Below, one piece after another: positions 21,915 through 56,740 of a DNA stretch of 64,000 bases (positions are counted from its first letter, which is position 1; each line of letters starts with the position of its first letter). The stretch comes from a virus, in the UHGV virus genome UHGV-1882326; one strand, given 5' to 3'. The notes under the pieces were generated by a model that saw nothing but the letters and a program-made list of their open reading frames with translations, was not told where the DNA came from and ran no database searches. Position numbers and translations under genes: made by a program.

Positions 21915-22961
21915 TTAGCCAACAGTTACATTAGCATAACCTTCTACTGCTGTATTCTTAGTGAGAACAGCATGGATAGTAGTTGTACCAGTTGCTACAC
22001 CCTCTACTTCACCAGTTGCATCATCCACTTTAGCAGTACCAGCAGCACCACTTGTAAAAGTAACAGCAGTTGGGTCTACTAACTTAGGTAAAGCATTTCT
22101 GATAAGAGCATAAACCTTAATAGTTTCTTTTTCACTTACTTGTAAATCAATATCAGCCGGAGTTAAAGCCAATGCGTAAGCGTCATTCTCCCACTGAGCA
22201 GTAGACAGAATTTCCTTAATAGTACCATAGATAGCTTCATCACTACAGCTAGAGGTTTCAGCAGATGCCAGAGCAGAACCATTAAGAGGCGTATTAGCCG
22301 CACCAGTCATACTCATAGAGATTTCCTGTGAGCCGTTTAACATTAAACGTGGAATGTCAATCTGAACCTCGCCAACTTTAGTAGTAGACGCTTCATTTGG
22401 ATTAGTGCTACTACCTGCAAACAGAGTACCAGTCATTACAGCATGAACGGTAGCAGGAATAAAGTTAGCACCTACTGTCAGCACTCTCATAGAATCGTTG
22501 TTTACTACATACTTAACGCAATAAACATCACCAGACATAGCACCTGCAACAGTGATAATCTTATTGTTGAAAGTACCTTTAACCCATGTAGAGCCATTAG
22601 GCTTTTTGTACCAACCAATAGTACCAAAGTTACCAAATGCTACAGGAGTACCACTTACGGTAATCTGTCCTGCGTCTGTTACAGTAACTTCCTCAGAAGT
22701 TAAAGCACTACCACCAATCGCAATATCAGAACCAATGTTCTTTGCGATAAATTCAAGACGGAACATTACATCAGTAAGAGTTATGTCCATTGTAGAAGAA
22801 TGTGCATATTTGCCATACAGTTTTGCACCTTGTCCACCACGAATATCTTCAAGAGATACATCAAAACTAAAAGTAGAATCTGTTAAAGTTTTTGCAGTAG
22901 CAAACAGTTCATCGCCTACAAAAAGGTCAACATTTGCTACACCAGCTAAAAAAGCATCCAT
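21915..22961 (-). CDS. major tail protein with C-terminal Ig-like (Big_2-type) domain
   Basis: 348 aa and Thr/Ala/Gly-rich. The C-terminal TGTTTIHAVLTKNTAVEGYANVTV is Big_2-like. It lies upstream of the tape measure block. Confidence 0.55.
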   Translation of the reverse strand: MDAFLAGVANVDLFVGDELFATAKTLTDSTFSFDVSLEDIRGGQGAKLYGKYAHSSTMDITLTDVMFRLEFIAKNIGSDIAIGGSALTSEEVTVTDAGQITVSGTPVAFGNFGTIGWYKKPNGSTWVKGTFNNKIITVAGAMSGDVYCVKYVVNNDSMRVLTVGANFIPATVHAVMTGTLFAGSSTNPNEASTTKVGEVQIDIPRLMLNGSQEISMSMTGAANTPLNGSALASAETSSCSDEAIYGTIKEILSTAQWENDAYALALTPADIDLQVSEKETIKVYALIRNALPKLVDPTAVTFTSGAAGTAKVDDATGEVEGVATGTTTIHAVLTKNTAVEGYANVTVG

Positions 22962-23013
22962 TTATATTACTCCTTTCATATTTCAAACATTTTTTATATT
23001 TCAGACATTTGTG

Positions 23014-23043
23014 AACTACCCATCAGCTAAAGCTAATGGGATT
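23014..23043. repeat. palindrome-bearing miniature element, copy A
   Basis: The sequence AACTACCCATCAGCTAAAGCTAATGGGATT contains a 22-bp imperfect palindrome CCCATCAGCTaaAGCTAATGGG. The same core occurs at 32725 and, inverted, at 55451. Confidence 0.7.
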
Positions 23044-23048
23044 TCTGA

Positions 23049-23849
23049 TTATATTTTTTTAAATCCTTGTCCAATATTCTTTTTATTTACAAAAGCATCT
23101 GCATATTTGCCTTTCTTATTCTTATATGCAAAATGCTCTATAGGCTTTTTAAACTTTCCACCATTTGCTTCAAAATTCTTGTTCACAACGTAATCAATCT
23201 GTTCAACAACAGCATTAAACAAAGACGTAAAACTATAAAAAGTCATTTCAAGCAAATCTTTCTTTAACATGCCGTTATGTGCTGAAACAATAGATATTTT
23301 TCTTTCTAATGTTATAGGTTCTTTATTCTTATTCACCAAACTATAATATTCATCAACAGCTTTCTTATAATCTGGATTTAAATCTCTTTCATCTTCATAA
23401 TCATAGATATTCTGATATTGTATAATTTGAATTATATTATCAAAATCCTTATAATCTATAATCACGTCATTTATTTCAAGAATAAATTTACCTTTTTCAT
23501 TAATCTTGATTTTGAACTGTTCTTCAATTTTATTAAGTCCAAAACATAATTCTATAATTCTGACAAATTGCCAATATCTCATAGAATGTTTTTCAACTTT
23601 TCCAAACAAATCTTGTCCTAAAACCATTTGCAAAAGAAATTGTAAATAAGAACTCTGAATGATTTCTATATCTTCAAATGTGTTTTTATCTATTGTAAGC
23701 ACGTTATAACAGTTTACAAAATCGTTAGCTTCTTTTAACTTAACTGGATATAATAATATTACTTGTTTATGTCTAGTAACATAAGGGATAGGTTTGTCCA
23801 TTTCAATATAGTTCTGATAAGGTGTTATATCAAACTTCATTAAACACAC
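23049..23849 (-). CDS. hypothetical head-tail joining/structural protein
   Basis: 266-aa ORF between the head and tail modules. Confidence 0.3.
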   Translation of the reverse strand: MCLMKFDITPYQNYIEMDKPIPYVTRHKQVILLYPVKLKEANDFVNCYNVLTIDKNTFEDIEIIQSSYLQFLLQMVLGQDLFGKVEKHSMRYWQFVRIIELCFGLNKIEEQFKIKINEKGKFILEINDVIIDYKDFDNIIQIIQYQNIYDYEDERDLNPDYKKAVDEYYSLVNKNKEPITLERKISIVSAHNGMLKKDLLEMTFYSFTSLFNAVVEQIDYVVNKNFEANGGKFKKPIEHFAYKNKKGKYADAFVNKKNIGQGFKKI

Positions 23850-32761: not shown

Positions 32762-33721
32762 TCATTGATTTCGTGACCGCTCCGCAGAATCAGAAATGGC
32801 TTCTTCACTTTGAGGTCTACCAACTTGTCCACTACCCCCACTCATGGTATGAATAGACAAAAGTTGTGATAAATTGTCTAAGAAATCACTATTATGTGCT
32901 TCTTCCAACATTCTCTCAAAATCCATAGGTTTATATCCAAAAGCAGAAGCATAAGCACTTGAATTAAGCACCATACCCACATCTGCTAATTTCATAATAG
33001 CATCTTGCTTCTTTTTACGCCAAAATGGTTGTGTACATCCATCAAACGTAAACTTAAACTTAAATTGTTTAGTTTTCTGATTAGCATAGAACTCTAAGAA
33101 ATTGTTAAATTGAGTATATAATTTAGCTACAATCTCATAATCAGCAGTAATAGCCGCTTGAAGTTCTTCGTTTGACATTCTATCCGTAGCGTAAATTAAA
33201 CGGCTTGCAGAACTACCATATCCCACTGTATCTTTAGCGGCAGTAGTAGCCATATCCGTATTTTTATCCTCAAACTGTTTAAATTCAACTTCTTCAAGAG
33301 GTAAGGCAATAGAACGAACAATTTTATCTTGTGTCATAGAGTTTTTCAATCCACTAGCAACAAGTTTCATTAATCGTCCTAATGTACTTGGTTTGACTGC
33401 AAATCTATCAGCAACCTCACCAGATTTTGCAGAATCTTGCATTTTCATCTCACCGTAAAGTATACCAAAAGCACTGGCAATATCTTTATTTTTTTGTAAC
33501 TTTGCAATCTCTGTGTTATTGAAAACATTCTTTAAATACGGAGCCATAAAAGGAACACTTGCAAAATTACTTGTGTCAAACTTGAAAGCCCAGAAACCAT
33601 CATTAGGACTTGTCTGGTGATAAAGAGTAAAAGTGCCGTCACGATTACTTAAACCATTTGACGGAATATAATCTTTAAAATCTTTACCATCCCATACTTC
33701 TCTAAGGTATTTCTTAAACAC
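32762..33721 (-). CDS. portal protein, C-terminal portion (putative exon 2)
   Basis: 319-aa ORF with a GTG-initiated ORF call. The reading frame stays open further upstream, to 33748. Together with the 214-aa ORF at 35528..36172 it gives a ~530-aa product in the canonical position between TerL and the scaffold. Confidence 0.5.
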   Translation of the reverse strand: MFKKYLREVWDGKDFKDYIPSNGLSNRDGTFTLYHQTSPNDGFWAFKFDTSNFASVPFMAPYLKNVFNNTEIAKLQKNKDIASAFGILYGEMKMQDSAKSGEVADRFAVKPSTLGRLMKLVASGLKNSMTQDKIVRSIALPLEEVEFKQFEDKNTDMATTAAKDTVGYGSSASRLIYATDRMSNEELQAAITADYEIVAKLYTQFNNFLEFYANQKTKQFKFKFTFDGCTQPFWRKKKQDAIMKLADVGMVLNSSAYASAFGYKPMDFERMLEEAHNSDFLDNLSQLLSIHTMSGGSGQVGRPQSEEAISDSAERSRNQ

Positions 33722-33837
33722 AGGAGCATAACACTGAACCTCACATAACTAAAATTACGTAATTCTTGGGAACTTCCAACTATTGTCAGAATATTTGCCA
33801 AGCTAACCCCGTAGTTCCTACGGTTTTTATATATTAT
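33722..33837 (-). ncRNA. IS605-family right end / omega-RNA scaffold region downstream of tnpB copy 1
   Basis: In minus-sense, the sequence after the tnpB stop is CCGTAGGAACTACGG (hairpin) ... AATTACGTAATTTTAG. It is conserved with the region downstream of tnpB copy 2 (GGTAGGAACTATCGG ... AATTACGAGG ... TTTTGTAG). Confidence 0.5.
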
Positions 33838-34962
33838 TTAAACACTTAAAATTCTCAATCCTTCATTCAAAATATTAATAGAAGCATTATTATCTCTATC
33901 TAATTTTGAACCACAGTTAGAACAAATCCAGTATCTAATCTCAACAGACTTTTTACCACCATTAACACCACAACAATGACAAATTTGAGAAGAAGGAAAA
34001 TATCTATCAATTACAGATAATATCTTTCCATACCATGTAGATTTATAAGTCAACATTCTACGAAATTCAGACCAAGAAACATCATTCACATGTTTATTAC
34101 GAACATTTGAGTCTGTACTTTTCATAGATTGAACATCTAAATCTTCAATACAAATAATATCATATTGTTTTACAAGATTAGTAGTCAATTTCTGTAAAAA
34201 GTCTTTACGTTGATTAGATATATGTTTTTGTAAATTTGCAACTTTAATTCTTGCTTTATTCCAATTAGAACCACCGATTGTTTTTCTCAATAACTCTCTT
34301 TGTAATTTAGCAAGTTTCTTTTCTGATTTTTCATAAAATCTAGGATTTTTAATCTTAACACCGTTAGATAAAATTGCAAAATCTACAATTCCTAAATCTA
34401 TCCCAACATTTTTATTTGTTTTTGGATATTGTGGAAATTCTATATCAGCGCAACATAATGAACAATAATAATGTCCGTTAGGTTCTTGTGATATAGTAGC
34501 ATTAAGTATTCTTCCTTGCGGAATTTGTTTATCGCGAATTTTTACACAACCTAATTTTGGAAGTTTAATATGTTTATTTTCAAATCTTATATTACCACCA
34601 GCTGTAGTTTTCATATAACTTGTAGTATAAGATTGATATCTATTTTTCTTAGACTTAAATTTTGGATACCCAGTATGCTCTTTAAAGAATTTTTGATAAG
34701 CATTATCTAAATTTTTTAATGAATTTTGTAAAGAACATTTATCTGGTTCTTTAAGCCATTCATTTTCTTTCTTTAATTGAGTAAGCATTTTACTTGTGTC
34801 ATAAAAGCTTAAACTCTTTTTATTTTCTTTATACTCAGTTATCTTTTTATCTAAAAAATAATTATAAACATATCTACAACAACCAAAAGTTTTTTGTATT
34901 AATTCTTGTTGTTTTTTATTCGGATAAATTCTATACTTAAAAGCTTTTTCCAACAATATCAC
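33838..34962 (-). CDS. tnpB: TnpB (IS200/IS605-family OrfB; RNA-guided RuvC-like nuclease)
   Basis: 374 aa. The N-terminus KAFKYRIYPNKKQQELIQKTFGCCRYVYN is the OrfB_IS605 helix. A RuvC-like split domain is followed by a C-terminal zinc finger CHCCG...CSNCGSKLDRDNNASINIL. Confidence 0.9.
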   Translation of the reverse strand: MILLEKAFKYRIYPNKKQQELIQKTFGCCRYVYNYFLDKKITEYKENKKSLSFYDTSKMLTQLKKENEWLKEPDKCSLQNSLKNLDNAYQKFFKEHTGYPKFKSKKNRYQSYTTSYMKTTAGGNIRFENKHIKLPKLGCVKIRDKQIPQGRILNATISQEPNGHYYCSLCCADIEFPQYPKTNKNVGIDLGIVDFAILSNGVKIKNPRFYEKSEKKLAKLQRELLRKTIGGSNWNKARIKVANLQKHISNQRKDFLQKLTTNLVKQYDIICIEDLDVQSMKSTDSNVRNKHVNDVSWSEFRRMLTYKSTWYGKILSVIDRYFPSSQICHCCGVNGGKKSVEIRYWICSNCGSKLDRDNNASINILNEGLRILSV

Positions 34963-35527
34963 TTCCTTTCATAAATTAACTTATAACATAAACCTATATA
35001 AATGTCAAGTTAAATTATGAAAAGAATTATTTTAGTTTAAATAACATATAAAAACCGTAAGTTACTTTAGTTATATTTGGAGGTTGTCGTTCACATAGGC
35101 TCGCTAGTTCCTATGCAGTTCTCTAATGAACTTCTTGTACTTTCATACAAGCACAGACTATATCTTATCCCTCACCATTATGTGTTAGGGCCTACCCACT
35201 TCCACACGCTTGTGTGTACTTCCCTCAAGAGGAATAGTCGTTGAAGTTTTCCTTTCGGACTTACCTGCTAATTGCCTATTTTTCAGTGTTTAGGATTTAA
35301 CCATGCACCATTCATTCAATTTTTTCTACTTTCGTCACATTCACGCTTATACCATTTAAGCACATTTTTGTGTTGTTTAAGGTATTACGTTGTAGTTTGA
35401 ATGACTTTAAGGTTTCCTAGCAATTCAAGTAGTATTGGATGCCAAAAGCATCTCTACGTGCAAGTTTCCCTACACGCTGACTATTTCGTAAAACACTTAC
35501 TTATTCATACGAATATGTATTCACGAT
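34963..35527 (-). ncRNA. group I intron ribozyme core (5' part of an IStron-like element)
   Basis: 565-nt ORF-free segment, GC-richer than the AT-rich gene background. In minus-sense it contains an R-like element UUCAACGACUAUU (complement of plus 35231..35246) and an S-like element AAGAUAUAGUCU (complement of plus 35155..35170), which can pair GACUA/UAGUC to form P7. Boundaries are approximate. Confidence 0.6.
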
Positions 35528-36172
35528 TTAATCAATGTCCACTCCTTGCATACCAATGAAGTACATCATGTCGAAGTCGAATAATAAACCACTTTCAAAA
35601 TACCCAGTTAAAATACATCTATCTTGTGGTAATGTTTGCAGAGCATATTTAGGATTATTTCTATCCATGTTTGTTCTGAAACTTGTATAATGTACTTCAT
35701 GCCTTAAAAGCTGTTTTACAACTTTTTTAAATTCTCCTTTGTAATCAAAATTATCAAGAAATTTATAAATTCTTGCTTTATCTGCTTTATAATTATCAGA
35801 CTTATAATCTTCTTTCTTAGCGTTCTTACAAGTAATCTGCAAATCAAAAGAAAGGAGATTTGTGTAGTATTCAATAGTTCTGTTATAAATCATATCGAAT
35901 ACTTCCATAAACTCACTATAAGCCTGTAAATTTGTAGCACCAGTTTTATACTCACTTAAAGCCTTTATAATATCGTCATATTTTGGAATTTTAGCATTAT
36001 TGTTAAGATTAACCAGATTTTGATTACTTAACCATGGACTATATACTCCAAAACTATCCAATCCATATAAACTCTGAGCAAAACTTACTACATCATAAAC
36101 CTGTTGTTCTGATAACATAACAGGTTCTTCTACTTTAGGAGTTAATCTTTGACTATTTTTCGTAGTTCTCAT
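35528..36172 (-). CDS. portal protein, N-terminal portion (putative exon 1, ORF runs into intron)
   Basis: 214-aa ORF immediately downstream of TerL. Its stop lies inside the intron-like segment. Confidence 0.5.
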   Translation of the reverse strand: MRTTKNSQRLTPKVEEPVMLSEQQVYDVVSFAQSLYGLDSFGVYSPWLSNQNLVNLNNNAKIPKYDDIIKALSEYKTGATNLQAYSEFMEVFDMIYNRTIEYYTNLLSFDLQITCKNAKKEDYKSDNYKADKARIYKFLDNFDYKGEFKKVVKQLLRHEVHYTSFRTNMDRNNPKYALQTLPQDRCILTGYFESGLLFDFDMMYFIGMQGVDID

Positions 36173-36243
36173 CTCCTTTCTTCAAATATTTTTTATTTAA
36201 AGGCAGTCAAATCATAGCAGTTGATAAGACCGCCTATATACAC

Positions 36244-38124
36244 TTAGAACACAAGTTGGTCTAACTCATCTAAATTGGTATCTCTTTGTTCATCTACAGC
36301 ATACTTATCGCCTATTAAGGTTGCAATATGGTTTCCGTAACTCAAAGCTACAATTTTATCCTTTGTCGCACTATTTCTGTTAGGTTCTGATAATTTCAAA
36401 ATACCGTTATTCCATGTTTGAGTTAAACTAATAGCTTCTGACATCATTAATGCAGTTTGAACATATGGCAACTTAATATTAACTTTTTCCTCAGAACTCA
36501 TAGTAAGATAATTTACATCTTCTTCAAGTTCTGTTTCAATCGTTAATTCATCCACCAAAAATTCAATCATTTCATTGTCTAGGGCTTTCTTTAAATCAAG
36601 CCACATTAAACTATTTCGTTCACTTGTACCAACAATAGGTATAATACATGGTATAGCTTCTGCATCAACTGTTTTGCCTTTAAGTTCTTGAATTTTAGCA
36701 TCTGGAACTATCTGTAAAGCAGATTCATAACAAACTGTAAATCCATGTGGATTCCAATTACTTCGTGATGGGTGTTCAAAGGGTTTAGATAACTCTGTAT
36801 AATAAAGAGTACCACCGCTTCTTTCGTCCATTACGATATAATCTGCTTGGTAATCCCAAAAGAACTCTCTAATCTTTTGTTGAAATCCCTCACTATCACT
36901 AGCAGGGTGCGTTCCAATATATTCTACTTTTCGTCTTGTCTTACCATCTTTCATAATGACAGACATACAACCAATAACACTATTATCGTTATCGTTTGTA
37001 TTGCTGTTTACAAAAGCATAATCAATGAAAAGTAAACGTTTTTCAAATTCACCTTTAGGTCTGTTACCTAAATCAGTTGACATAAATATATCCATAGGCG
37101 TAGGTGGTTTATAGGCTTTTTTTATCACTTGATTCTTTCTGAAATCTTCAAGTAAGAAGAAAGCACCCTCTGTTTCACCATACATTTCATTCAAATCTTC
37201 TGTTACAAAGTCAATATCTGAATCAAATTCTTTATCATGCCAGTAATCAGCCCATGTTTTAAGGTTAAATAAAATTGCAAGGAAAATATTAGATGCAAAG
37301 AAATTATATGTATGTTTCGTTTGTGTCATACACTTTTGAACTACAAGTTTAAATTCTTTCCAAAACCATTCATGTTTAAATCTAGCAGATGTAATATATG
37401 CTGTTTTACACTGTTCAATCCAACGTGGTAATGTTTTTCCGTCTTTATCCTTGTATTCGTCACGTAAGGTATAAGCCGCTTGTCTTGGATGCGCCATTTT
37501 AGAAAATACAGAATCAAGTATTGTCTTTTTAAGTAATCGACACTCTTCATATATAAGAAAAGTACTTCTCTCTCCCCTACTTGATTCCAAACAAGGCAAT
37601 ACAGTTATCATACTTCCGTTAATCTTTTTCAAGTCTACTTCTATAGCATCATTATTATAACGAAAGACAATATCTCCGTTATCATAATAATATTTTAAAA
37701 CAGATGAAAGTTTTTTACATAATTCATCTTCCATTTTCTTTTTAACCATCTTAGTAGCTTGGGGAATTGTGGAAGAAGTAATAACAACTTCGGCATATGG
37801 AAATAATAATGCGTGAACCATTCCTGCAAGAGCAATAATAAATGATTTACTTCCACCTCTGCTGCAAATTCCATACCATACTTGTGATATTCCAACTAAA
37901 TACAACATAACATGCTGAAACGGATAAAGTTTTATCTTTAATCTTCTTTCAGCATATATATTCCAATTACGTCTATAGAATGTTGTCCATTCCTTAATAT
38001 TTTTCTTTCTTTGTTCCCATGGTAATCTTCTGTCAGTTTTTTTCTTTTCTTCTTGTTTCTTCTTTCTTTTTTCTACAAGGCTAATAATATCTATATCTTT
38101 GTTTTCCTCTAACATAGACATCAC
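36244..38124 (-). CDS. terL: terminase large subunit
   Basis: 626 aa. Walker A-like motif GICSRGGSKSF. The C-terminal nuclease region has acidic motifs (FIDYAFVNSNTNDNDNSVIG). It is translationally coupled to the upstream gene. Confidence 0.85.
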   Translation of the reverse strand: MMSMLEENKDIDIISLVEKRKKKQEEKKKTDRRLPWEQRKKNIKEWTTFYRRNWNIYAERRLKIKLYPFQHVMLYLVGISQVWYGICSRGGSKSFIIALAGMVHALLFPYAEVVITSSTIPQATKMVKKKMEDELCKKLSSVLKYYYDNGDIVFRYNNDAIEVDLKKINGSMITVLPCLESSRGERSTFLIYEECRLLKKTILDSVFSKMAHPRQAAYTLRDEYKDKDGKTLPRWIEQCKTAYITSARFKHEWFWKEFKLVVQKCMTQTKHTYNFFASNIFLAILFNLKTWADYWHDKEFDSDIDFVTEDLNEMYGETEGAFFLLEDFRKNQVIKKAYKPPTPMDIFMSTDLGNRPKGEFEKRLLFIDYAFVNSNTNDNDNSVIGCMSVIMKDGKTRRKVEYIGTHPASDSEGFQQKIREFFWDYQADYIVMDERSGGTLYYTELSKPFEHPSRSNWNPHGFTVCYESALQIVPDAKIQELKGKTVDAEAIPCIIPIVGTSERNSLMWLDLKKALDNEMIEFLVDELTIETELEEDVNYLTMSSEEKVNIKLPYVQTALMMSEAISLTQTWNNGILKLSEPNRNSATKDKIVALSYGNHIATLIGDKYAVDEQRDTNLDELDQLVF

Positions 38125-39015
38125 CTAATCTTTCTTTCGTGGAATTAAAGGGTACTCCTTTGTACCTGCTATCAGATTCTTTACAGCAGAAACCACATAC
38201 TTAAACCAGTCAGCTTCAATATTGCAGAAATCCTTATATTTTTCCAAATCTTCACATTCACAAGGTTCAGTATTCTCTATTTCCCAAATCTGATGTTCAA
38301 GCATTTGTTCAGTTAAAGTCTTTTCTTTTTTCTGAGTAAAGTTATCAAGTTTTAAGGTTTTCATTAATTTTAAAACCATATCTTGTTCTTCTTTACCAGA
38401 ATTACCCATGTCCACTTCTTTTTTGTATCTTAATTCAGCAATACAAAGTTTACGATACAAACTCTCTTGTGCAGGTGTCAACTTAATATCATCAGTGTAG
38501 AATCCCCATCTATATTCAAGATAGGCATAATCTTCATCTGATTGCTCACCCCAGTCCAGAATTAAATCTTGTATATTTAATTTACGTTGCGTTTCTTCAT
38601 CATTGGAAGTCATAGAATTTCTATCTACATCTGTTTGTCCAAAACAATCCCATTTGTCTGATTTTTTCTTTAAAGCTAAAAAAGTTACATAATACTGTCC
38701 CCAGTAGTTATATGTACTAGACAAAGTACCCTCTTCTCTTTCTTTTTCAACTTTTTCCATCAAACCATCATATACTTTTTGTATAAACGGTATTCCTATC
38801 TCAGCACATGTTGACCATAAAGCTAACTTAATATCTCCGTATTTATTGTAATAGTTTTGATAAATCGTTTTACAACAAGTGGTACAATAAGGAACTACTT
38901 TATTTGCATGGTTTGGATTGTCAGATTTATAGAATTTCTTAATATCATAAGGTCTGTTGCAACGAATACAAAACGATTCTGTTATGGGTCTTTCTTTTCT
39001 TATAATGGTTGCCAT
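38125..39015 (-). CDS. putative terminase small subunit / DNA-packaging protein
   Basis: 296 aa. Its stop abuts the TerL start. It has an N-terminal Cys cluster (CIRCNRP...CTTCC) and an acidic C-terminus. Function is assigned by position only. Confidence 0.35.
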   Translation of the reverse strand: MATIIRKERPITESFCIRCNRPYDIKKFYKSDNPNHANKVVPYCTTCCKTIYQNYYNKYGDIKLALWSTCAEIGIPFIQKVYDGLMEKVEKEREEGTLSSTYNYWGQYYVTFLALKKKSDKWDCFGQTDVDRNSMTSNDEETQRKLNIQDLILDWGEQSDEDYAYLEYRWGFYTDDIKLTPAQESLYRKLCIAELRYKKEVDMGNSGKEEQDMVLKLMKTLKLDNFTQKKEKTLTEQMLEHQIWEIENTEPCECEDLEKYKDFCNIEADWFKYVVSAVKNLIAGTKEYPLIPRKKD

Positions 39016-39053
39016 AACTTTCCCTCGTTTCCATCAAAAAAAGAAAGACAATA

Positions 39054-39572
39054 TTATTTGCCTTTCTTTTTCTCTACGAACTCGACATAATCTGGTTCAA
39101 GCATTTCAGCTAATCTTTTTTGCTTTCTTACTCTTTTTTGCTTTTCTATCATTACTTCTCTTTGAAATTCTGGTTTTACAGCTTCTTTTACTTTAGCCGC
39201 AGACTTATTTTTTACCTTTAATGACGGTTCAAGGTTGTTTAAATATCCTTTGAGATATTCAGAGGTTTTAAATCTAACCATATACGTCAATGGTATCATA
39301 ACGTTATTTTTTTGTTTCGTCTGAATATTATATACTCTCTTGATTACACCCCCGCAAGTGGAAATCTTAAAAGTACCAATATTAGGAATATTGAAATAAC
39401 CGTTATTTTTTATTTCATCTGCCATAATTTCAATAAAAGTTTTCATACATAACTTAGCCATTTCAGTTGTGAAACTTGGTTTAGTTTTTTTAACTGAAAT
39501 GGCTATCAGTTCTGCAAGTTCGTTAGGGCTTAAAGACTTAACAATAACACCATCTTTATTAGGTCTTGCCAT
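39054..39572 (-). CDS. HU/IHF-family DNA-binding protein with C-terminal basic extension
   Basis: 172 aa. A histone-like fold (LSPNELAELIA...FTTEMAKLCMKTFIEIM...IPNIGTFKIS) is followed by a lysine-rich tail. Confidence 0.5.
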   Translation of the reverse strand: MARPNKDGVIVKSLSPNELAELIAISVKKTKPSFTTEMAKLCMKTFIEIMADEIKNNGYFNIPNIGTFKISTCGGVIKRVYNIQTKQKNNVMIPLTYMVRFKTSEYLKGYLNNLEPSLKVKNKSAAKVKEAVKPEFQREVMIEKQKRVRKQKRLAEMLEPDYVEFVEKKKGK

Positions 39573-39597
39573 AACTTATTACTCCTTTATTTTATGA

Positions 39598-39951
39598 TTA
39601 CTCTACAAAAGGTGCGTCCTGTGTCTTTTCCTTAACAGTTTCTCTTAACTTCTTAGACATCTTAAATACTGGCTTAGTATAATCTGGGGTTGCACTTAAC
39701 TGTCCAACTTCACCAGTAGCAGGATTGATAATACCAGTTCTTTCTGGTCTGCCCTTAACAGTAGTAAAATCAATCTTTCCAAAGCCGTTCATATCAAACT
39801 TCTTACCAGAAGCAATGCAAGTAGCGGCAATTTCATAAAACGCAGTCAGAACAGCCTTTGTGTCCTTCTGAGTAGCCTGTGCCTTATATGCTACCATCTT
39901 TACTAACTCTGCGGTGCTAACCTTAGTTACCTTAATTGCTTTCTTTGCCAT
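39598..39951 (-). CDS. HU-family histone-like DNA-binding protein
   Basis: 117 aa. GFGKIDFTTVKGRPERTGINPATGEVGQLSATPDYTKPVFKMSKKL matches the HU arm motif GFGxFxxxxRxxRxGRNPxTGE...PxFKxGKxLK. Confidence 0.75.
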   Translation of the reverse strand: MAKKAIKVTKVSTAELVKMVAYKAQATQKDTKAVLTAFYEIAATCIASGKKFDMNGFGKIDFTTVKGRPERTGIINPATGEVGQLSATPDYTKPVFKMSKKLRETVKEKTQDAPFVE

Positions 39952-40199
39952 AATAAATTACCTCATTTCTTTCTTTTTATTCGTTTTATTCATTTTTATT
40001 TCTTGAGGGATTTGGTGAGTGCCATATAGGTCACTCCCTTACCCCCCTTTGATTTTTAATTTTTGGGTTCTCTCTATCCATTAATAGAAAACGATTTTGC
40101 TCTTTCAAAAAGTGATTTAATCTTCAATACTTTTTATATAAAATAATTTTATTTTTGAAAATGCCTATTTTACACCCTTATTTCACCTTATTGAAAAAA

Positions 40200-40958
40200 T
40201 TAGACCGTTTTTGAACATTTTTTACAAACTGCAAATAAAGTGTTGTCAACCTTAATAAGTTTACCGCATTTTGAACACATTGCATACCCCTCTTTGTAAG
40301 TCGCAATCAAAAGGTTCCCCAAATTCTCCATTTCACTGATTCTGAAAACTGGTTCCATTCCTTCATAATCATCTAACATTTTTACTCTAATATTCAAATT
40401 GTCACAAGAATTTGTAGTTTCAACCAAACCTCTGCTTTTTAATTTGCCAATCAGCTTCATGCGCTCAAAAGCAGTACAAGCCACATTTGACAATTCAAAC
40501 CAGTCTCCAATATCTTTTATGGTTTTAAGATTTAACCAACCATTAGCCGATTTATAATGAGCCATAACATACGCAGAAAACATTAACTTACGCTCTCGGT
40601 CAGTTTCTCCTTTGAATACTTGTGTCATGTCCCATGCGTAAACGTCTATATAAAGTATATGACTTAAAGGTTTAATAATACCGTTCCTTAGATTATCATA
40701 TACATTCATAATCATTTTACGCCATTTTTCATGTACGTATTCTTTTTGATAAATTTTAGTCATTGCATTTCTTACTAAATCTTCCACATGATATAATGCA
40801 TAATCAAACTCTTTATCGGAATAGTATTTAATCAACCATAAGAGAAATTTAAAAAAACCTATATCTGGTTTAACAATTTTTTCTGTTTTATCAGAATAAA
40901 TATTTGTTAAAATATCTCTTACATACTGATTTTCATTAAGAATGATTTTGTTTTTCAT
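40200..40958 (-). CDS. hypothetical protein with C-terminal zinc ribbon
   Basis: 252-aa ORF ending in CSKCGKLIKVDNTLFAVCKKCSK. Confidence 0.35.
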   Translation of the reverse strand: MKNKIILNENQYVRDILTNIYSDKTEKIVKPDIGFFKFLLWLIKYYSDKEFDYALYHVEDLVRNAMTKIYQKEYVHEKWRKMIMNVYDNLRNGIIKPLSHILYIDVYAWDMTQVFKGETDRERKLMFSAYVMAHYKSANGWLNLKTIKDIGDWFELSNVACTAFERMKLIGKLKSRGLVETTNSCDNLNIRVKMLDDYEGMEPVFRISEMENLGNLLIATYKEGYAMCSKCGKLIKVDNTLFAVCKKCSKTV

Positions 40959-42248
40959 ACCTTACACTCCTAGTGAACTACTACAAAATTAAAAACCTCG
41001 TAATTTCTTGCTTCAACGTCCTCGTAACCTACTAACTCCACAAGCGTAAATTCCGATAGTTCCTACCGTACTATTTATTATTAAGTTGCACTTAAAATTC
41101 TTAGTCCTTCATTTAATATATTAATTGCGGCATTAATATCTCTATCATGCACAGTACCACATTTAGAACATCTCCACTGACGTACAGATAAATTCTTTGT
41201 ATCTTTATTAATATAACCACATACATTACAAGGTTGACTTGACTTTGTAAATCTATCAATCTTTATATATGTGCGTCCATTCCAATCAGATTTATAACTT
41301 ATCTGTCTTGTCAATTCATACCAACCACAATCAAGTATTGATTTTGAAAGATTATGATTTTTCACCATATTAGAAATTGCTAAATCTTCACTAACTATTA
41401 CTTGGTTTTCGCTAATAAGTTTATATGAAATTTTATGCAAATAATCTATTCTGGTATTTTTAATTTTTTCATATACTTTTGCAAGTTTGATTCTTTGCTT
41501 CTGATAATTCTTACTACCTTTTTCTTTATGAAAAAGTTTACGCTGTTCTTTAGCAAGTTTTTTCTCATATTTTTTAGTAAGTTTAAGATTATCAAACTTT
41601 TCTCCATCAGAAGTTATAAGTAAATCCTTAATGCCTAAATCAATTCCAATAGAATTGTTTGTATGCTCTAATGAAATATGTTCTGTTTCTATTAAAATAG
41701 ATACAAAATATTTACCAGAGGGAACTTGCGAAATAGTAGCAGATTTAATTTTTCCAGTAAATTCTCTATGAATTTTTGCTTTCACCCATTTAAGTTTTGG
41801 AAGTTTAATTTTATTGTTATCAAAAGAAACTTCAATATTATTATTTGCGAAATTTGTTTTATAAGATTTTTTATTATCTCGTTTGCTTTTGAACTTTGGA
41901 TAACCAGTATGTTCTTTAAAGAATTTTTGATAAGCGGAGTCCATATTATAAATGGAATTTGTCAAAGACCATTTATCAACCTCTCTAAGCCATTCATATT
42001 CTTTTTTTAGTTGTCTATTACAATAGTTATTCAAATCAATTTTACTCATAGAAACACTTTCATTTTTATATTTATTGATTTTAAGATTTAAACACTGATT
42101 ATAAACAAACCTGCAACAGCCAAAAGTTTTTTGGATTAAAATTTTTTGTTCTTTGTTTGGATATAATCTGTATTTATAGGCTTTTAACATTTACTTATCA
42201 CCTCCAATCTATTTATATTATATATTCTACTACATTTTCATTAACTTG
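40959..42248 (-). mobile_element. IS605-family (IS1341-like, tnpB-only) insertion in an intergenic site
   Basis: It carries tnpB copy 2, a 58-bp upstream region with a -10-like TATAAT, and a 122-bp 3' region conserved with the 3' region of copy 1. No tnpA is present. Confidence 0.6.
41081..42190 (-). CDS. tnpB: TnpB (IS200/IS605-family OrfB)
   Basis: 369 aa. It starts MLKAYKYRLYPNKEQKILIQKTFGCCRFVYNQ and ends in the zinc finger CNVCG...[19 protein letters not shown]. It is paralogous to copy 1. Confidence 0.9.
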   Translation of the reverse strand: MLKAYKYRLYPNKEQKILIQKTFGCCRFVYNQCLNLKINKYKNESVSMSKIDLNNYCNRQLKKEYEWLREVDKWSLTNSIYNMDSAYQKFFKEHTGYPKFKSKRDNKKSYKTNFANNNIEVSFDNNKIKLPKLKWVKAKIHREFTGKIKSATISQVPSGKYFVSILIETEHISLEHTNNSIGIDLGIKDLLITSDGEKFDNLKLTKKYEKKLAKEQRKLFHKEKGSKNYQKQRIKLAKVYEKIKNTRIDYLHKISYKLISENQVIVSEDLAISNMVKNHNLSKSILDCGWYELTRQISYKSDWNGRTYIKIDRFTKSSQPCNVCGYINKDTKNLSVRQWRCSKCGTVHDRDINAAINILNEGLRILSAT

Positions 42249-42923
42249 TCAACCATTTTCATGCAATTTCTTTAAATTTTCTATTATTAAATCACCGACA
42301 ACAGCCCAACAAAAGTATTTATTCTTATTCTGCCCATAACATAAATCAAGCATAATATTAACAAGTCTGTCTTTGTTTGGACAAATTTCTTCTGCTCTTG
42401 CTCTAAATTCATGCTGTATGCTCATTACTCTTATATTTGCTTCTTCTGTACTTAAATTTTTCTCAATCACAATTTTCTTAAATTGCTTAATACGTTTAAT
42501 GTATTCTTTTTCAAGATTTTCAATATCTTCTCTTGTTTTAGGTGAACTTCTTTGAATAGGAGATTTAAGAAATTCATAATCAAAGCCTTTGGCTTTAAGT
42601 TCTGTCACTCTACCATCAAATTCACTTTCTATATATCGACAAATTCGGTTCATAGTAGAATCAGAAATGTTTACAGGCATTTTTATATCGTACCATTCTA
42701 AAAATTTTTGCTGTTCTTCTGTAAGATTTTGTTTTTTTCTTAGTTCATTTACTTTACAGCCATAAAGCATAACACATTTAAGGTCACAATTTTTTATATA
42801 ACTATCGTAATCTTTCTTTAAAGAAGAATAATTATAAATAAAGTAATAAGGCTTTTTATCTGTTACGATTATTTTATCTAATGTAGTGGTACATAATTTT
42901 GAAACATACCAATACTTAGGCAT
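42249..42923 (-). CDS. hypothetical protein
   Basis: 224-aa ORF. Confidence 0.3.
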   Translation of the reverse strand: MPKYWYVSKLCTTTLDKIIVTDKKPYYFIYNYSSLKKDYDSYIKNCDLKCVMLYGCKVNELRKKQNLTEEQQKFLEWYDIKMPVNISDSTMNRICRYIESEFDGRVTELKAKGFDYEFLKSPIQRSSPKTREDIENLEKEYIKRIKQFKKIVIEKNLSTEEANIRVMSIQHEFRARAEEICPNKDRLVNIMLDLCYGQNKNKYFCWAVVGDLIIENLKKLHENG

Positions 42924-43152: not shown

Positions 43153-43956
43153 TTACAAATATAAGCTAAACAATTCTTTTTGTGGAGCATATTCTCCATA
43201 ATATTCTTTTTCAGCTATAAGTCTTGTTTTTATAGCTTCTTCTTTTGTATCAAATCTTCCTAAATTTATTCTTTTATAATTATACCCTATTCTAGCTATC
43301 CATTTATTTTCTCTCTTATTATAACAAACACCAGAAACACCAGAAGTATTATTTTTATGTGTTGAAGCATTTTTCGCATTTTCGCTAGGAGAACAAATTC
43401 TTAAATTATTTTCTGTGCAATCATAAGTATTTCTATTTATGTGGTCTACAATTTTATCTTTCATTATTCCATTTGTTTTTGCAACTTCCACATCTTTAAA
43501 ATATATTAATCTGTGTAATATTAAATTTTCTCTTGTTTCTCCTTTTTTGTTTCGATTATCTCCTAAATGCGCTCTGGCATATTTTTTATATGCGAACCAA
43601 TAAAATTGAGAAACCAACTCATAATTTTTTAAATCTATTTTTACTTTTTCTAATGAATTATTAAAACATAAGAAGCAGTAATCTTTTCCTTCTGGAAAAA
43701 TATATTTATTTTCTTTTTTACGGCTTTCTGAAATTTTATTTCTTCTTTCTAAATTTCTTTGTTCTTTATTGCACTCACAATCTATAATTTTATTATTATT
43801 AAGATAAGTTCCTTTTATTGCTTGTACTCTACCACATAATTTACATTCACAGTCAAAATAGGATATTTTATTTTTACTACTTAATTCTTCGTTTATTTTT
43901 ATTACATACCATGTATCAAATGTTAAGCCTTCTAATTGTAATCTCTTATTTGACAT
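43153..43956 (-). CDS. HNH homing endonuclease with AP2 DNA-binding domain
   Basis: 267 aa. HNH motif VDHINRNTYDCTENNLRICSPSENAKN. AP2-like segment SGVSGVCYNKRENKWIARIGYNYKRINLGRFDTKEEAIKTRLIAEKEY. Confidence 0.75.
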   Translation of the reverse strand: MSNKRLQLEGLTFDTWYVIKINEELSSKNKISYFDCECKLCGRVQAIKGTYLNNNKIIDCECNKEQRNLERRNKISESRKKENKYIFPEGKDYCFLCFNNSLEKVKIDLKNYELVSQFYWFAYKKYARAHLGDNRNKKGETRENLILHRLIYFKDVEVAKTNGIMKDKIVDHINRNTYDCTENNLRICSPSENAKNASTHKNNTSGVSGVCYNKRENKWIARIGYNYKRINLGRFDTKEEAIKTRLIAEKEYYGEYAPQKELFSLYL

Positions 43957-44560: not shown

Positions 44561-45130
44561 TCAATAATTCCAAATTTCTCTAGTTACAACTCTTTTAACC
44601 AAATTCCATTTATTCTTTTGTTTTCTATAGGTATCTAATTCTGGATGCATAATTCTTACTATTTCCATTACGGTTTTACCTTCGTCATATAATCTTCTTA
44701 TTTTCTCTACATCTTCACCTGTATATTTTGCTCTACCATTATTTTCACCTTGTCTACCCTTACAATAAGTTTCATAATTATTTTTAATAGTATAAGCAAT
44801 ATTTTCAACATGTGTTATCCATTCAAGATTTTCAAAATAACTATCTGTTCTTATAAAATTTTTATGATTAACTTCTAAAGGTTCGTCTGTTTCTGGTTTT
44901 GGAACAAATACCATAGCAACAACACGGTGTACAGTTATAGACCGTCTATTTTTAAGATTGCCTAATGTTACTATTGGATAACCGTCTGGATTTAGTCTTT
45001 GTTTGACCATTCCTCTTTCTGGTGCTATAATTCTTCCGTAATTGCTTACTTTATATTTTAGCCCATTAAATTCCCAATCTTTCCATTCTTCTGGCTTTCT
45101 TTTAGGGGTTAATCTTTTTGAATTTTTCAA
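44561..45130 (-). CDS. HNH homing endonuclease (NUMOD4-HNH type)
   Basis: 189 aa. NUMOD4-like YKVSNYGRI. HNH core VHRVVAMVFV...EVNHKNFIRTDSYFENLEWITHVEN. Confidence 0.75.
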   Translation of the reverse strand: MKNSKRLTPKRKPEEWKDWEFNGLKYKVSNYGRIIAPERGMVKQRLNPDGYPIVTLGNLKNRRSITVHRVVAMVFVPKPETDEPLEVNHKNFIRTDSYFENLEWITHVENIAYTIKNNYETYCKGRQGENNGRAKYTGEDVEKIRRLYDEGKTVMEIVRIMHPELDTYRKQKNKWNLVKRVVTREIWNY

Positions 45131-54184: not shown

Positions 54185-54256
54185 AGGGCATTAGCCAAGC
54201 GGAAAGGCAAAACACTTTGACTGTTTCATGCGTAGGTCCGAATCCTACATGCCCTG
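54185..54256 (+). tRNA. tRNA-like element, possible tRNA-Gln(UUG) with atypical T-loop
   Basis: A cloverleaf can be drawn with a 7-bp acceptor stem AGGGCAT/ATGCCCT and a D-arm GCC-aagcggaaa-GGC. The anticodon stem AAACA/TGTTT carries the loop CTTTGAC (anticodon TTG). The T-arm GTAGG-TCCGAAT-CCTAC has C where the near-universal U55 is expected. Confidence 0.45.
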
Positions 54257-54286
54257 TTTATAAAAATAAATGTTTGGTGATTAAAA

Positions 54287-55084
54287 ATGAATACTAATAT
54301 TAAATATTATGAACGTAAAGTTCCAATAGTTGATACTTATTCTGTTAAAGAATTAGAAGAAATTGTGAAAAATTCATATTCTTTTAAAGAAGTAATTTTA
54401 AAATTGGGATATAAAACGCAGAATGGAAGTAATATAAAAACAGTAAGAAACAGATTAGAAAACTTAAACATTGATTATAGTCATTTTGCTTCTACTATGC
54501 AAATAAAAAGAACCTATGAAAATGTATTTTGTAAAAATAGTACAGCTACACAGCATGTTTTAAGACGGTGGTATAAGAAAATAAGTAATGATAATATTTG
54601 TACTATTTGCGGACAGGATAAAATCTGGAATAATAAAGAATTGACTATGATTTTAGACCACATTGATGGCGACAATCATAACAATGTAACTTCAAATCTA
54701 CGGTGGATTTGTCCTAATTGCAACAGTCAGTTGCCTACATTTGCAGGCAGAAATTTAAGAAAAGGTGAAAAAACTGATAATAGTAATATTGGTTATTCTC
54801 CTACAAAAATTAGAAATGTAAAGTTAAAACATACAAGAGAAAAGAAAATTTGTCCTATTTGCAACAAAAATATCCTTTCTAACAGTGATAATAAAATGTG
54901 TATTGATTGCTACAAAAATTATCAATCCAGAAATATTCCTGCTAAAGAAGAGTTAGAAAAATTAATTTATAATACGCCTTTTGTAAAAATTGGTAAAAAA
55001 TACGGGGTATCAGATAACGCTGTAAGAAATTGGTGTAAGAAATACGGCTTACCTTATAAATATAATGATTTACACAAAAGATAA
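54287..55084 (+). CDS. HNH homing endonuclease
   Basis: 265 aa. It carries the motif CTICGQDKIWNNKELTMILDHIDGDNHNNVTSNLRWICPNCNSQ plus extra Cys4 clusters. It is flanked by tRNA-like genes. Confidence 0.75.
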   Translation: MNTNIKYYERKVPIVDTYSVKELEEIVKNSYSFKEVILKLGYKTQNGSNIKTVRNRLENLNIDYSHFASTMQIKRTYENVFCKNSTATQHVLRRWYKKISNDNICTICGQDKIWNNKELTMILDHIDGDNHNNVTSNLRWICPNCNSQLPTFAGRNLRKGEKTDNSNIGYSPTKIRNVKLKHTREKKICPICNKNILSNSDNKMCIDCYKNYQSRNIPAKEELEKLIYNTPFVKIGKKYGVSDNAVRNWCKKYGLPYKYNDLHKR

Positions 55085-55189
55085 TTAATTTATTATGTTT
55101 AAGTCTTGTTGGAAAGAATTAGTAGATATTATAGGTAATCTATTAAACAATGCAAGTTCAACTCTTGCACCTAAATTTTTATCATAAAC

Positions 55190-55263
55190 GGAACAATATT
55201 TCAACTGGTTAGAAAGTTCGGCTCATAACCGAAAAGTTATAGGTTCGAGTCCTATTTGTTCCA
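55190..55263 (+). tRNA. tRNA with CAT anticodon (elongator Met or Ile-lysidine type)
   Basis: Acceptor GGAACAA/TTGTTCC, D-stem TTTC/GAAA, anticodon stem TTCGG/CCGAA with loop CTCATAA (CAT at 55224..55226), T-arm ATAGG-TTCGAGT-CCTAT, discriminator A. It is not initiator-like, having a 1:72 G:C pair and no GGG/CCC in the anticodon stem. Confidence 0.8.
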
Positions 55264-55450: not shown

Positions 55451-55472
55451 CCCATTAGCTTTAGCTGATGGG
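55451..55472. repeat. 22-bp palindrome, copy C, at the left end of the tnpB copy 3 element
   Basis: CCCATTAGCTTTAGCTGATGGG, 44 nt upstream of the tnpB copy 3 start. It is the reverse complement of the core of copies A and B. Confidence 0.7.
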
Positions 55473-55515: not shown

Positions 55516-56627
55516 ATGTTGGTAGCATACAAATACAGATTGTATCCGAATAAAGAACAACAAGAATATTTTGCTAAATGTTTTGGGTGTGTACGATTTA
55601 TCTATAATCGTATGCTTTCAGATAAGATTGACTATTATAAAGAAACAAAGAAAAAGCTGAATAATACACCTGCTCAGTACAAGAAAAAGTTTGAGTGGCT
55701 AAAAGAAGTAGATTCACTTGCATTAGCAAATGCTCAAATGCTCAAATGAATTTGCAGACAGCCTATAACAATTTTTTCAAATGTCCAGAAGTGGGTTTTC
55801 CAAAATTCAAAAGCAAGAAGAATAATCACTTCTCTTATACTACAAATAATCAGGGAGGAAACATTTATGTGACAGACCGATACATAAAACTCCCTAAGAT
55901 TGGACTTGTTAGAGTTCGGAAACATAGAGATTTTGAAGGACTAATTAAGTCTGTTACTATTTCTAAAAGTCCGTCTGGTAAATACTTTGTTTCAGTATTA
56001 GTAGACCAAAAAGATAAAGAAAAATTAATTCCAAACAATAACCAAATTGGAATTGATTTAGGTATTAAAGAATTTTGTATTACTTCTGATGGAGAGATGA
56101 TTCAAAATCCAAAGTTTCTTAGAAAGTCTGAAAAGAAATTAAGAAAATTACAAAAGGATTTATCTCGTTGTCAAAAAGGAAGTAAAAATAGAGAAAAATG
56201 CAGAATTAAAGTCGCAAGACAACATGAAAAGATTGCAAATCAACGTAAAGATTTTCTACATAAGTTATCTAGGCGATTTATTAATGAAAACCAAATCATT
56301 GCATTAGAAACTTTGAAAATTAAAAATATGATGAGTAATCATAAATTAGCAAAATCAATAGCAGATGTATCATGGTCTGAATTTGTAAGACAATTAGAGT
56401 ATAAGGCTCAGTGGTATGGTAGAGAAATCGTAAGGATTGATACTTGGTATCCATCAAGTCAGATATGCTCTAATTGTGGTCACAAAGACAGAAGAAAGCC
56501 ATTATCAGTAAGAGAATGGATCTGTCCTAATTGTGGTACACATCATGAAAGGGATATAAATGCAGCTATAAATATTCTTAAAGAAGGTTTGAGAATTAAA
56601 ACGGCAGGAACTGTCGAGATAGTCTAA
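55516..56627 (+). pseudogene. tnpB: tnpB copy 3 (IS605-family), frameshifted by an 8-bp tandem duplication
   Basis: It is split into 55516..55749 (MLVAYKYRLYPNKEQQEYFAKCFGCVRFIYNR) and 55695..56627 (RuvC-like domain plus zinc finger CSNCG...[19 protein letters not shown]). The sequence TGCTCAAA occurs twice in tandem at 55731..55746, and removing one copy restores a single ~370-aa frame. Confidence 0.85.
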
Positions 56628-56692
56628 GTAAACTTGTGCGGTTACGCATATTGATTAGAAAATCCAATGAGTTTTAACTCATGGGTAGTTCA

Positions 56693-56740
56693 GAGGTAAG
56701 TTAATGAGTAGATGTAGAGGTAAGTTAATGAGTAGATGTA
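56693..56740 (+). repeat. perfect 24-bp tandem duplication abutting the right end of the tnpB copy 3 element
   Basis: GAGGTAAGTTAATGAGTAGATGTA occurs twice, immediately after ...ATGGGTAGTTCA. It duplicates the N-terminus of the downstream ORF (MSRCRGKL-MSRCNC). Confidence 0.9.

Follow-up and report, generated by a model that had tools for sequence, protein, structure and literature searches.

The question raised by a 64,000-nucleotide stretch of the virus genome UHGV-1882326 (hereinafter, the window) is what activity is retained by transposon-type elements that encode the nuclease TnpB and lack a tnpA gene. Two such elements, denoted copy 1 and copy 2, are present on the minus strand of the window, and both are of already-known types: copy 1 is a group A IStron, whereas copy 2 is an IS605 TnpB-omega RNA element. 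The comparisons described below point to RNA-guided TnpB elements with omega-RNAs and, with good confidence, to RNA-guided homing as the likeliest present-day activity of these elements. IStrons and TnpB-omega RNA elements have been well described already; what adds value here is the context. About 10 nearly identical phage genomes carry the same TnpB-only IStron at four positions in essential genes, and empty sites are available for both copies. This makes the lineage a natural system for asking whether elements with TnpB alone are passed from phage to phage by RNA-guided homing during co-infection and how the RNA and DNA roles of one end sequence become uncoupled. If the homing interpretation is correct, the window would provide a natural and directly testable case of a TnpB-only IStron engaged in intron homing, an idea that has been called unvalidated in a 2026 review (PMC13565253).

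The window is a phage-like sequence with a low GC content (about 31%), and its genes are located mainly on the minus strand as far as about 47 kb. The sequence appears to come from a gut-Clostridia-type phage that belongs to a gut phage lineage with genomes of roughly 100 kb. Megablast comparison with the phages in GenBank yielded distant relatives only, namely PMBT24 and CB457P1, both phages of Enterocloster, at 77% across portal exon 1. The informative phage relatives, more than 200 for each of the two TnpBs, come from IMG/VR, and the respective loci are labelled L with a number.

Two TnpB proteins and their 3′ scaffold

Both tnpB open reading frames (ORFs) are located where the initial annotation of the window had placed them. 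Copy 1 occupies positions 33838..34962 on the minus strand (the longest ORF encodes 374 amino acids, with the likely start at a TTG at 34953 or 34956), and copy 2 occupies positions 41081..42190 on the same strand (369 amino acids). The two proteins are 49% identical across their full length, and both contain the HTH_OrfB_IS605, OrfB_IS605 and Cas12f1-like_TNB zinc-ribbon domains of Pfam. The structures of ISDra2 TnpB (8BF8/8EXA/8H1J) match both proteins full-length (for 8BF8, E=3e-95 with copy 1 and E=3.8e-85 with copy 2), and the next-best solved TnpB-like chain, 8IAZ, is a far weaker match to either. The RuvC D, E and D residues of copy 2 line up with the GvDvG, E and hDrD motifs of the ISDra2 TnpB chain 8BF8, and the respective residues of copy 1 (GIDLG, EDL and DRD) are kept as judged by alignment to copy 2. 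Both copies align with ISDra2 TnpB over their full length and retain the D/E/D residues; the window proteins are about 40 amino acids shorter at the C-terminus. A tblastn search of the whole window with a family Y1 TnpA as the query detected nothing better than E=1, so that the elements are tnpA-less, as annotated, and differ from ISDra2 in this respect as well. By these comparisons, both copies are IS200/IS605-family, ISDra2-like TnpB elements in which a predicted omega-RNA scaffold occupies the segment from the stop codon of tnpB to the right end.

The proposal that the two 3′ flanks share an omega-RNA scaffold and a right end was part of the initial annotation, and it holds. In a global alignment, the flanks downstream of the stop codons (107 and 112 nt) score 50, compared to 0.2 ± 8.7 in 1000 dinucleotide shuffles, none of which reaches this score (z=5.7); the similarity is accordingly well above chance. 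A common plan is apparent in the flanks of all IMG/VR relatives: a 6-bp hairpin after the stop codon (CGGTAGGAACTATCG and variants) comes first and is followed by a central domain with the closing stem GCTTG(G)...(C)CAAGA and then by a terminal hairpin that is free in sequence and has a CTTTAG-type loop. The flank terminates with (A/G)GTTCA(C/G/A), beyond which the sequences diverge completely and at once (80 loci); the true common terminus of copies 1 and 2 is (A/G)GTTCA(G/C). Of the motifs originally quoted for the shared flank, the GTAGGAACTA(C/T)CGG hairpin (33809-33823 in copy 1 and 41054-41068 in copy 2; hereinafter, hairpin 1) is conserved in the family. The other two did not stand: AATTACG combines the last bases of the conserved CAAGAA with the 5′ arm of the terminal hairpin, which is variable in sequence among the relatives, and TTTT(G)TAG matches non-homologous positions, which belong to the loop of the hairpin in copy 1 but to its 3′ arm in copy 2.

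An alignment of 69 sequences supports three helices with 19 consensus pairs, and compensatory changes are found in 17 of the 19. Paired cells account for 94.6%, in comparison with 73% after column shuffling (0 of 500 shuffles reach the observed value) and with 31-46% when the partners are slid by 1-3 columns. Pairs of the G.U type are abundant (for one pair, GU is found in 34 sequences and GC in 31), in line with an RNA that has the sequence of the sense strand of tnpB. A covariance model denoted R1, which was built from 66 outside sequences and included no window sequence, was then used to search the window with filters off. It matches copy 2 at 40973-41093 (minus strand; 104.9 bits, E=7e-28) and copy 1 at 33734-33850 (minus strand; 90 bits, E=1.6e-23), and the ends of these matches coincide exactly with the independently set element ends, 40973 and 33734. 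The copy 1 scaffold (post-stop part, 33734..33850), which is at the same time the right end of the element and the intron's 3′ end, consists of hairpin 1, the central stem GCTTGG...CCAAGA, the terminal hairpin and the end GGTTCAG. The copy 2 scaffold (40973..41093) consists of hairpin 1, a RAGATH-18-like central domain, a terminal hairpin rich in G.U pairs and the end AGTTCAC. In contrast to ISDra2, the conserved helices follow the stop codon instead of overlapping the ORF. On the covariation and the matches of the independent model, both 3′ flanks are interpreted as one common scaffold of the omega-RNA type, extending as far as the right end.

Several other assignments of these structures were considered and rejected. 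Hairpin 1 is not a plausible terminator: a terminator scan calls it for copy 1 only on the opposite (plus) strand and never for copy 2, and the covariation also argues against this role. The central domain of copy 2 (CUUGUGGAGU...ACGUUGAAGCAAGAA) fits the core consensus of RAGATH-18, the reRNA of IS607 TnpB (RF03064; PMC11061315), and RAGATH-18 also resembles copy 2 in that no part of the scaffold overlaps the ORF, all of it being downstream. However, the copy 2 scaffold scores 25 bits with the Rfam model, below the gathering score of 44.9, the relatives encode a Y1 rather than a serine TnpA, and the transposon-associated motif (TAM) is A/T-rich and not AGGAG/GAGGG, so that membership among the IS607 reRNAs was rejected. 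A weak match to the Rfam family Ref70 (Enterococcus sRNA 70, RF02841) at 33740-33829 (minus strand; E=0.015) shows the same layout of hairpin 1 and central stem. It is sub-threshold as well and indicates resemblance only; the Ref70 small RNA is itself probably a TnpB omega-RNA.

An IStron in the portal gene and an element behind a phage promoter

Copy 1 is part of a complete group A (CdISt1-like) IStron of 1797 nt (33734..35530, minus strand) that interrupts the portal gene, with exon 1 at 36172..35531 and exon 2 at 33733..32762. The intron implied by the initial annotation is present and is a group I intron: its catalytic core (35134..35500, minus strand) matches the full Rfam model RF00028 with 67.1 bits (gathering threshold 50; E=2.7e-16). 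The intron was filtered out in a whole-window Rfam scan at the gathering threshold and was recovered, with this score, in a regional E-value scan; the regional scan found no group I intron at copy 2, again as annotated. The flanking ORFs are the two halves of the portal protein, which are joined between GVDID and CYAP by alignment to the portal of Enterocloster phage PMBT24. In the close relative L098, the portal gene is uninterrupted, and the same point is flanked by ...GACATAGAT and TGTTATGCTCC (the exon 2 side also given as TGTTATGCTCCTGTG); the joined exons of the window encode ...GVDID-CYAPVFKKYL, which is the sequence found in the uninterrupted L098 portal and is collinear with the portal of PMBT24.

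The IStron begins with TAAATCGTGAA, as do the IStrons at 10 other loci, and terminates with GGTTCAG. Immediately upstream is TTGAT (35531..35535, minus strand), the predicted TAM or transposase target motif, which comprises the last bases of exon 1 and the final U of which is the 5′ splice site; the 5′ flank of the IStron is TTGAT at 10 loci and TCGAT at 4 loci. Group A IStrons have been defined by insertion after TTGAT, ATTAT or TTTAT and by a 3′ end of TCAG (PMC4227781), and the TTGAT flank has been reported both for these and for CdiIStrons (PMC4227781; 10.1101/2023.11.20.567912); copy 1 follows TTGAT and ends with TCAG. By these features, copy 1 is assigned to the group A (CdISt1-type) IStrons, with the group I intron on the left and tnpB with the predicted omega-RNA on the right. 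Because the boundaries of the element are the splice sites, splicing should restore the portal mRNA. In elements of the CdiIStron type, splicing and omega-RNA production are competing uses of one transcript. A candidate internal promoter upstream of tnpB copy 1, TTGACA-17-TATAAG, fails the promoter-scan rules, and no claim is made for it.

The same IStron (TnpB 88-94% identical) is found elsewhere in seven close relatives with flanking proteins that are 90-100% identical. In L098 it interrupts terL, in L101 and L102 it lies where orf296 ends, and in L099, L100, L135 and L140 it is again in the portal gene but 39 nt further upstream. At each of these sites it follows TTGAT or TCGAT, and the distribution implies that the IStron has moved recently among essential structural genes. 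The comparison of empty and filled sites indicates, for both copies, that insertion is precise and produces no target-site duplication. Like the group A IStrons CdISt1/CdiIStron of Clostridioides difficile (PMC4227781; 10.1101/2023.11.20.567912), copy 1 combines a 5′ group I intron with an IS605-type tnpB without tnpA, is inserted after TTGAT, ends with TCAG and has ends that are splice sites, its predicted omega-RNA and its 3′ splice site overlapping. Unlike the group A elements in the published survey, it resides in the portal gene of a gut phage lineage and has a left-end hairpin that is 10 nt shorter; the phage IStrons in that survey are group B/IS607 elements of C. botulinum phages (PMC4227781). 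The occurrence of the same IStron in terL, orf296 or another portal site of close relatives also sets it apart from the described group A elements. A related IStron, with a TnpB 59% identical to copy 1 and 82% nucleotide identity in the 3′ half of the intron, is present in the unannotated record of Clostridioides phage ES-S-0173-01 (L002; CP067352.1).

Copy 2 is an element of 1252 nt with a truncated left end (40973..42224, minus strand; a 2-nt TA ambiguity allows 40971..42222). The gaps of 58 bp and 122 bp that surround it were correctly given in the initial annotation, and the flanking genes are adjacent, with no tnpB between them, in 10 related IMG/VR phages, where the empty junction consists of ...TTGACA-17-TAGAA directly followed by TAGGAGTGTAAGATATG. 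The right end of copy 2, GTAGTTCAC, is the family terminus. The promoter that had been attributed to the element is another matter. The sequence TTGACA-17-TAGAAT (42224..42252, minus strand), which lies upstream of tnpB copy 2 and matches 11 of the 12 consensus positions, is conserved with the same spacing in the 10 insertion-free related phages, in which the gene for a 252-amino acid protein lies downstream. The presence of this promoter at the empty sites means that it belongs to the phage, as the promoter of the 252-amino acid gene, and not to the insertion sequence (IS); a resident phage promoter mistaken for one of the IS is an annotation pitfall that is hereby corrected. The stop codon of the upstream gene falls inside the -35 box, and the last bases of the promoter, TAGAA, constitute the TAM-like 5′ flank of copy 2. 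From this arrangement, copy 2 is seen to have landed between the -10 box of the phage promoter and the ribosome-binding site of the downstream gene.

Nor is copy 2 a complete IS, as had been assumed. The full-length left end in this family spans about 95 nt (TTGAA followed by the element, ...GGCTCGCAATCCCATTAGCTTTAGCTGATGGGTAAAGAGCC...ACAGAGAAT ATATAAATAGATTGGAGGTGATAAGTAA ATG), whereas in copy 2 the element extends no more than about 33 nt upstream of the ATG. Copy 2 starts at an internal position, AGAA(T)/(T)ATATAA, without a left-end hairpin, in which it also differs from ISDra2, and its left junction falls within a short stretch, TAGAAT(A), that is microhomologous to the -10 box of the phage promoter. 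Two histories are possible: insertion of a full-length element after TAGAA with a later deletion between the repeated AGAA(T) sequences, or microhomology-mediated acquisition. The TTGAA motif is the TAM inferred for the family: L033 and L034, which carry one element at two sites, diverge exactly there, and TTGAA precedes the left-end hairpin in most of the aligned loci. The L033/L034 pair is the one clean pair in an ungapped upstream-divergence scan for left-end boundaries, the remainder being uninformative. The bacterial relatives of TnpB copy 2, with at most 77% identity, are from gut Lachnospiraceae and other Clostridia, in agreement with the distant likeness of the window to Enterocloster phages.

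The initial annotation further regarded the two copies as one IS subfamily present both as a plain IS and as an IStron. An IStron and an intron-less element are indeed found side by side, but not within one subfamily, given that the TnpBs, with their 49% identity, fall in separate sister clades. Of the 80 copy-1-clade loci, 32 have a window-like intron upstream of tnpB, as opposed to 0 of the 76 copy-2-clade loci (nhmmer), and an Rfam E-value scan found no group I intron at 13 further loci of the former or at 16 loci of the latter. Intron-bearing and intron-less forms accordingly coexist inside the copy-1 clade, and among the loci scanned, the copy-2 sister clade was never seen as an IStron. 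A Y1_Tnp domain (Pfam, E=3.6e-36) is encoded directly upstream of tnpB in L066, and similar Y1 TnpA ORFs are found at 7 loci of the copy-2 clade; the search with copy 1 gave another 16 loci, more distant ones, with such an ORF. The presence of a Y1 (IS200-type) TnpA in autonomous relatives of both clades supports the IS200/IS605 placement despite the RAGATH-18-like domain of copy 2. Several of the copy-2-clade loci L048-L061, L033-L035, L090 and L091 have a consensus TTGACA-17-TATAAT/TATGAT promoter before tnpB instead of a left-end hairpin, and some of these also have operator-like palindromes (GTGATAGC...GCTATCAC) and an apparent divergent gene; such promoter-headed tnpB genes may be regulated or domesticated copies.

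Predicted guides, their targets and a proposed RNA-guided homing

The guide predicted for copy 1 (TGTTATGCTCCTGTGTTTAA; 33714..33733, minus strand) lies directly after the scaffold end and consists of the first bases of exon 2, whereas that predicted for copy 2 (TAGGAGTGTAAGGTATGAAA; 40953..40972, minus strand) follows the respective scaffold end and covers the ribosome-binding site and the start codon of the 252-amino acid gene. That the guides are the bases just past each 3′ end, as the initial annotation suggested, is borne out by the empty sites in related phages, and the target search that it recommended, with TAM plus guide, returned matches in 3 contigs for copy 1 and in 7 contigs for copy 2. 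Specifically, GAT plus 17 nt of guide 1 is uninterrupted in the 3 related phage contigs, and TAGAA plus the first 12 nt of guide 2 is found in the 7 related contigs, others, such as L004, having one mismatch at nucleotide 13. The predicted targets are TTGAT plus TGTTATGCTCCTGTGT (also TGTTATGCTCCTGTGTTT) for copy 1 and TAGAA plus TAGGAGTGTAAGGTAT (also TAGGAGTGTAAG(G/A)TATG) for copy 2. A predicted guide from the 3′ flank and, for copy 1, a T/A-rich pentanucleotide as the predicted TAM (TTGAT) are shared with ISDra2. Since exon 2 begins with the predicted guide of copy 1, joining the TAM to this guide recreates the portal allele without the intron.

These arrangements suggest the following scheme. 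The phage promoter would transcribe tnpB copy 2, the omega-RNA and then the displaced gene, and TnpB would load a guide copied from the 3′ flank of its own element. The guided TnpB could then cut the uninterrupted allele, recognized as TAM plus guide, in a co-infecting related phage, and recombinational repair would copy the element into the cut allele. The outcome would be intron homing in the case of copy 1 and homing without an intron in the case of copy 2.

A different explanation for the conserved 3′ structures is that they are solely single-stranded DNA signals, namely right-end hairpins for a Y1 TnpA, and that the elements are non-autonomous ISs moved in trans by a host TnpA. Subterminal hairpins are indeed typical of IS200/IS605 ends, the CTTTAG-loop hairpin is common to the left and right ends of the relatives, a Y1 TnpA is encoded by the autonomous relatives, and the four different IStron sites among close relatives imply real transposition. 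However, the state of the ends in the window fits this explanation poorly. The largely G.U-paired terminal hairpins of copies 1 and 2 fold as RNA at -6.6 and -6.7 kcal/mol (z = -3.3 and -2.8, respectively), whereas as single-stranded DNA they are not significant (z = -0.6); the terminal hairpins of copy 3 (see below) and of L048, a typical relative, fold in both forms. The left-end hairpin of copy 1 has a 10-nt deletion compared to L098, L101 and L121, and copy 2 is without any left-end hairpin. Copies 1 and 2 thus lack the full set of subterminal hairpins expected for Y1 TnpA, which copy 3 and the relatives have, and with these hairpins degraded or missing, copies 1 and 2 are truncated derivatives rather than complete IS elements. 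Furthermore, hairpin 1 and the central stem are distant from the cleavage site and yet covary strongly, the G.U pairs are frequent and strand-specific, and the same region is the omega-RNA in the characterized ISDra2 and CdiIStron systems. A purely DNA-level role is therefore considered improbable; the comparison is suggestive of copies 1 and 2 having kept the RNA function and lost the features that are read by TnpA.

Several observations weigh against RNA-guided homing by elements that are no longer mobilized by TnpA. The view that copies 1 and 2 would be poor TnpA substrates draws on the folding thermodynamics of short hairpins and on how the copies compare to their relatives, and the IStron has clearly moved between sites in the lineage, which requires a transposase from somewhere. 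A near-identical donor of copy 2 was not found, the best matches being 81% identical in IMG/VR and 77% in bacterial genomes. At the TAM position, copy 1 has TTGAT, but the TAGAA that precedes copy 2 deviates by a single base from the TTGAA inferred for its family and may not be a compatible TAM. Finally, the three empty portal alleles (L178-L180) carry TAGAT (Ile codon ATA), whereas the occupied allele carries TTGAT (Ile codon ATT), and the TAGAT alleles may not be cleavable. This TTGAT/TAGAT difference at 35531-35535, which is synonymous and lies inside the predicted TAM, could reflect target choice or TAM escape, and the latter could be part of an arms race at the level of the TAM.

With regard to copy 2, homing has to be weighed against domestication by the phage, in which case the element would be a weapon or exclusion factor that cuts insertion-free rival phages in the manner of the free-standing homing endonucleases of T-even phages. 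The position of copy 2 directly behind a strong, conserved phage promoter is compatible with this possibility, as are the intact tnpB and scaffold in combination with the loss of the end recognized by the transposase, the matching target in relatives and the presence in the window of a free-standing gene for an HNH/AP2-type endonuclease-like protein. However, the mechanism would be the same as in homing, so that the sequence cannot tell the two apart, the TAM at the copy 2 site is non-consensus, and the insertion is found in this phage only (0 of 10 relatives), with no sign of long retention or selection. Domestication as a weapon thus seems unlikely. The similarity to the T-even homing endonucleases (Seg, Mob and I-TevI) is one of niche: these, too, are located between or inside conserved phage genes and have their targets in insertion-free relatives. 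Unlike in the T-even systems, the target would be found here by a guide RNA and not by a protein, so that the analogy is one of function only. As a tentative generalization of the homing interpretation, hairpin-less TnpB-omega RNA elements might persist in this lineage as RNA-guided homing endonuclease genes, either intron-borne in essential structural genes or free-standing behind a phage promoter, which would spread or exclude rivals through cleavage of the empty allele when phages co-infect a cell.

Further copies, decay and neighbouring genes

The window contains additional traces of the same family, which the initial annotation had overlooked. A third tnpB element, copy 3 (55516..56693, plus strand), was identified by tblastn; a tandem duplication of 8 nt (AAATGCTC x2; 55728-55743) shifts the reading frame of its tnpB (55516-56627), and removal of one repeat yields an ORF of 367 amino acids. 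The omega-RNA scaffold of copy 3 (56579-56693) is matched by R1 with 54.5 bits and ends with GTAGTTCAG at 56693, its first hairpin (CGGCAGGAACTGTCG) differs from that of copy 2 by compensatory changes, and a canonical left-end hairpin, CCCATTAGCTTTAGCTGATGGG, is present upstream at about 55451-55472. In addition, a solo right-end remnant of 38 nt (AATCCCATTAGCTTTAGCTGATGGGTAGTTCAC; 23011..23048, minus strand) gives a partial R1 match (27.2 bits, E=3e-5); it consists of a hairpin plus TAGTTCAC and is located, without tnpB or a left end, in the gap between the ORFs 23049..23849 and 21915..22961. Three states are thus represented in one window: in copies 1 and 2, the nuclease is intact and the DNA ends are degraded; in copy 3, the ends are intact and the nuclease gene is frameshifted; and the remnant is an end on its own.

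The latter two states, together with the degenerate ends of copies 1 and 2, show that decay is ongoing in this genome, and copies 1 and 2 could in principle also be relics that are inactive in both guidance and transposition, with a 3′ similarity due to common descent. Against such inactivity, both ORFs are full length with an intact catalytic triad, and the scaffold pairs are kept through wobble and compensatory changes rather than broken. Moreover, the portal gene is essential, and accordingly, at least the intron would still have to splice. Complete inactivity is the least probable of the alternatives and hardly credible, and homing remains the preferred interpretation.

Copy 3 adjoins a tRNA gene (55190-55263), and tnpB elements often adjoin tRNA genes or arrays in L117, L139, L144, L021, L022 and L025 as well, as copy 3 does in the window (54185-55263). 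Two genes upstream of copy 2, the ORF 43153-43956 (minus strand) has a match to HNH_3 that slightly exceeds the cut-off and one to AP2 that narrowly misses it, which suggests a free-standing gene for a homing endonuclease-like protein. The translations of the ORFs 44561..45130 and 54287..55084 look alike in kind to this HNH/AP2-type gene.

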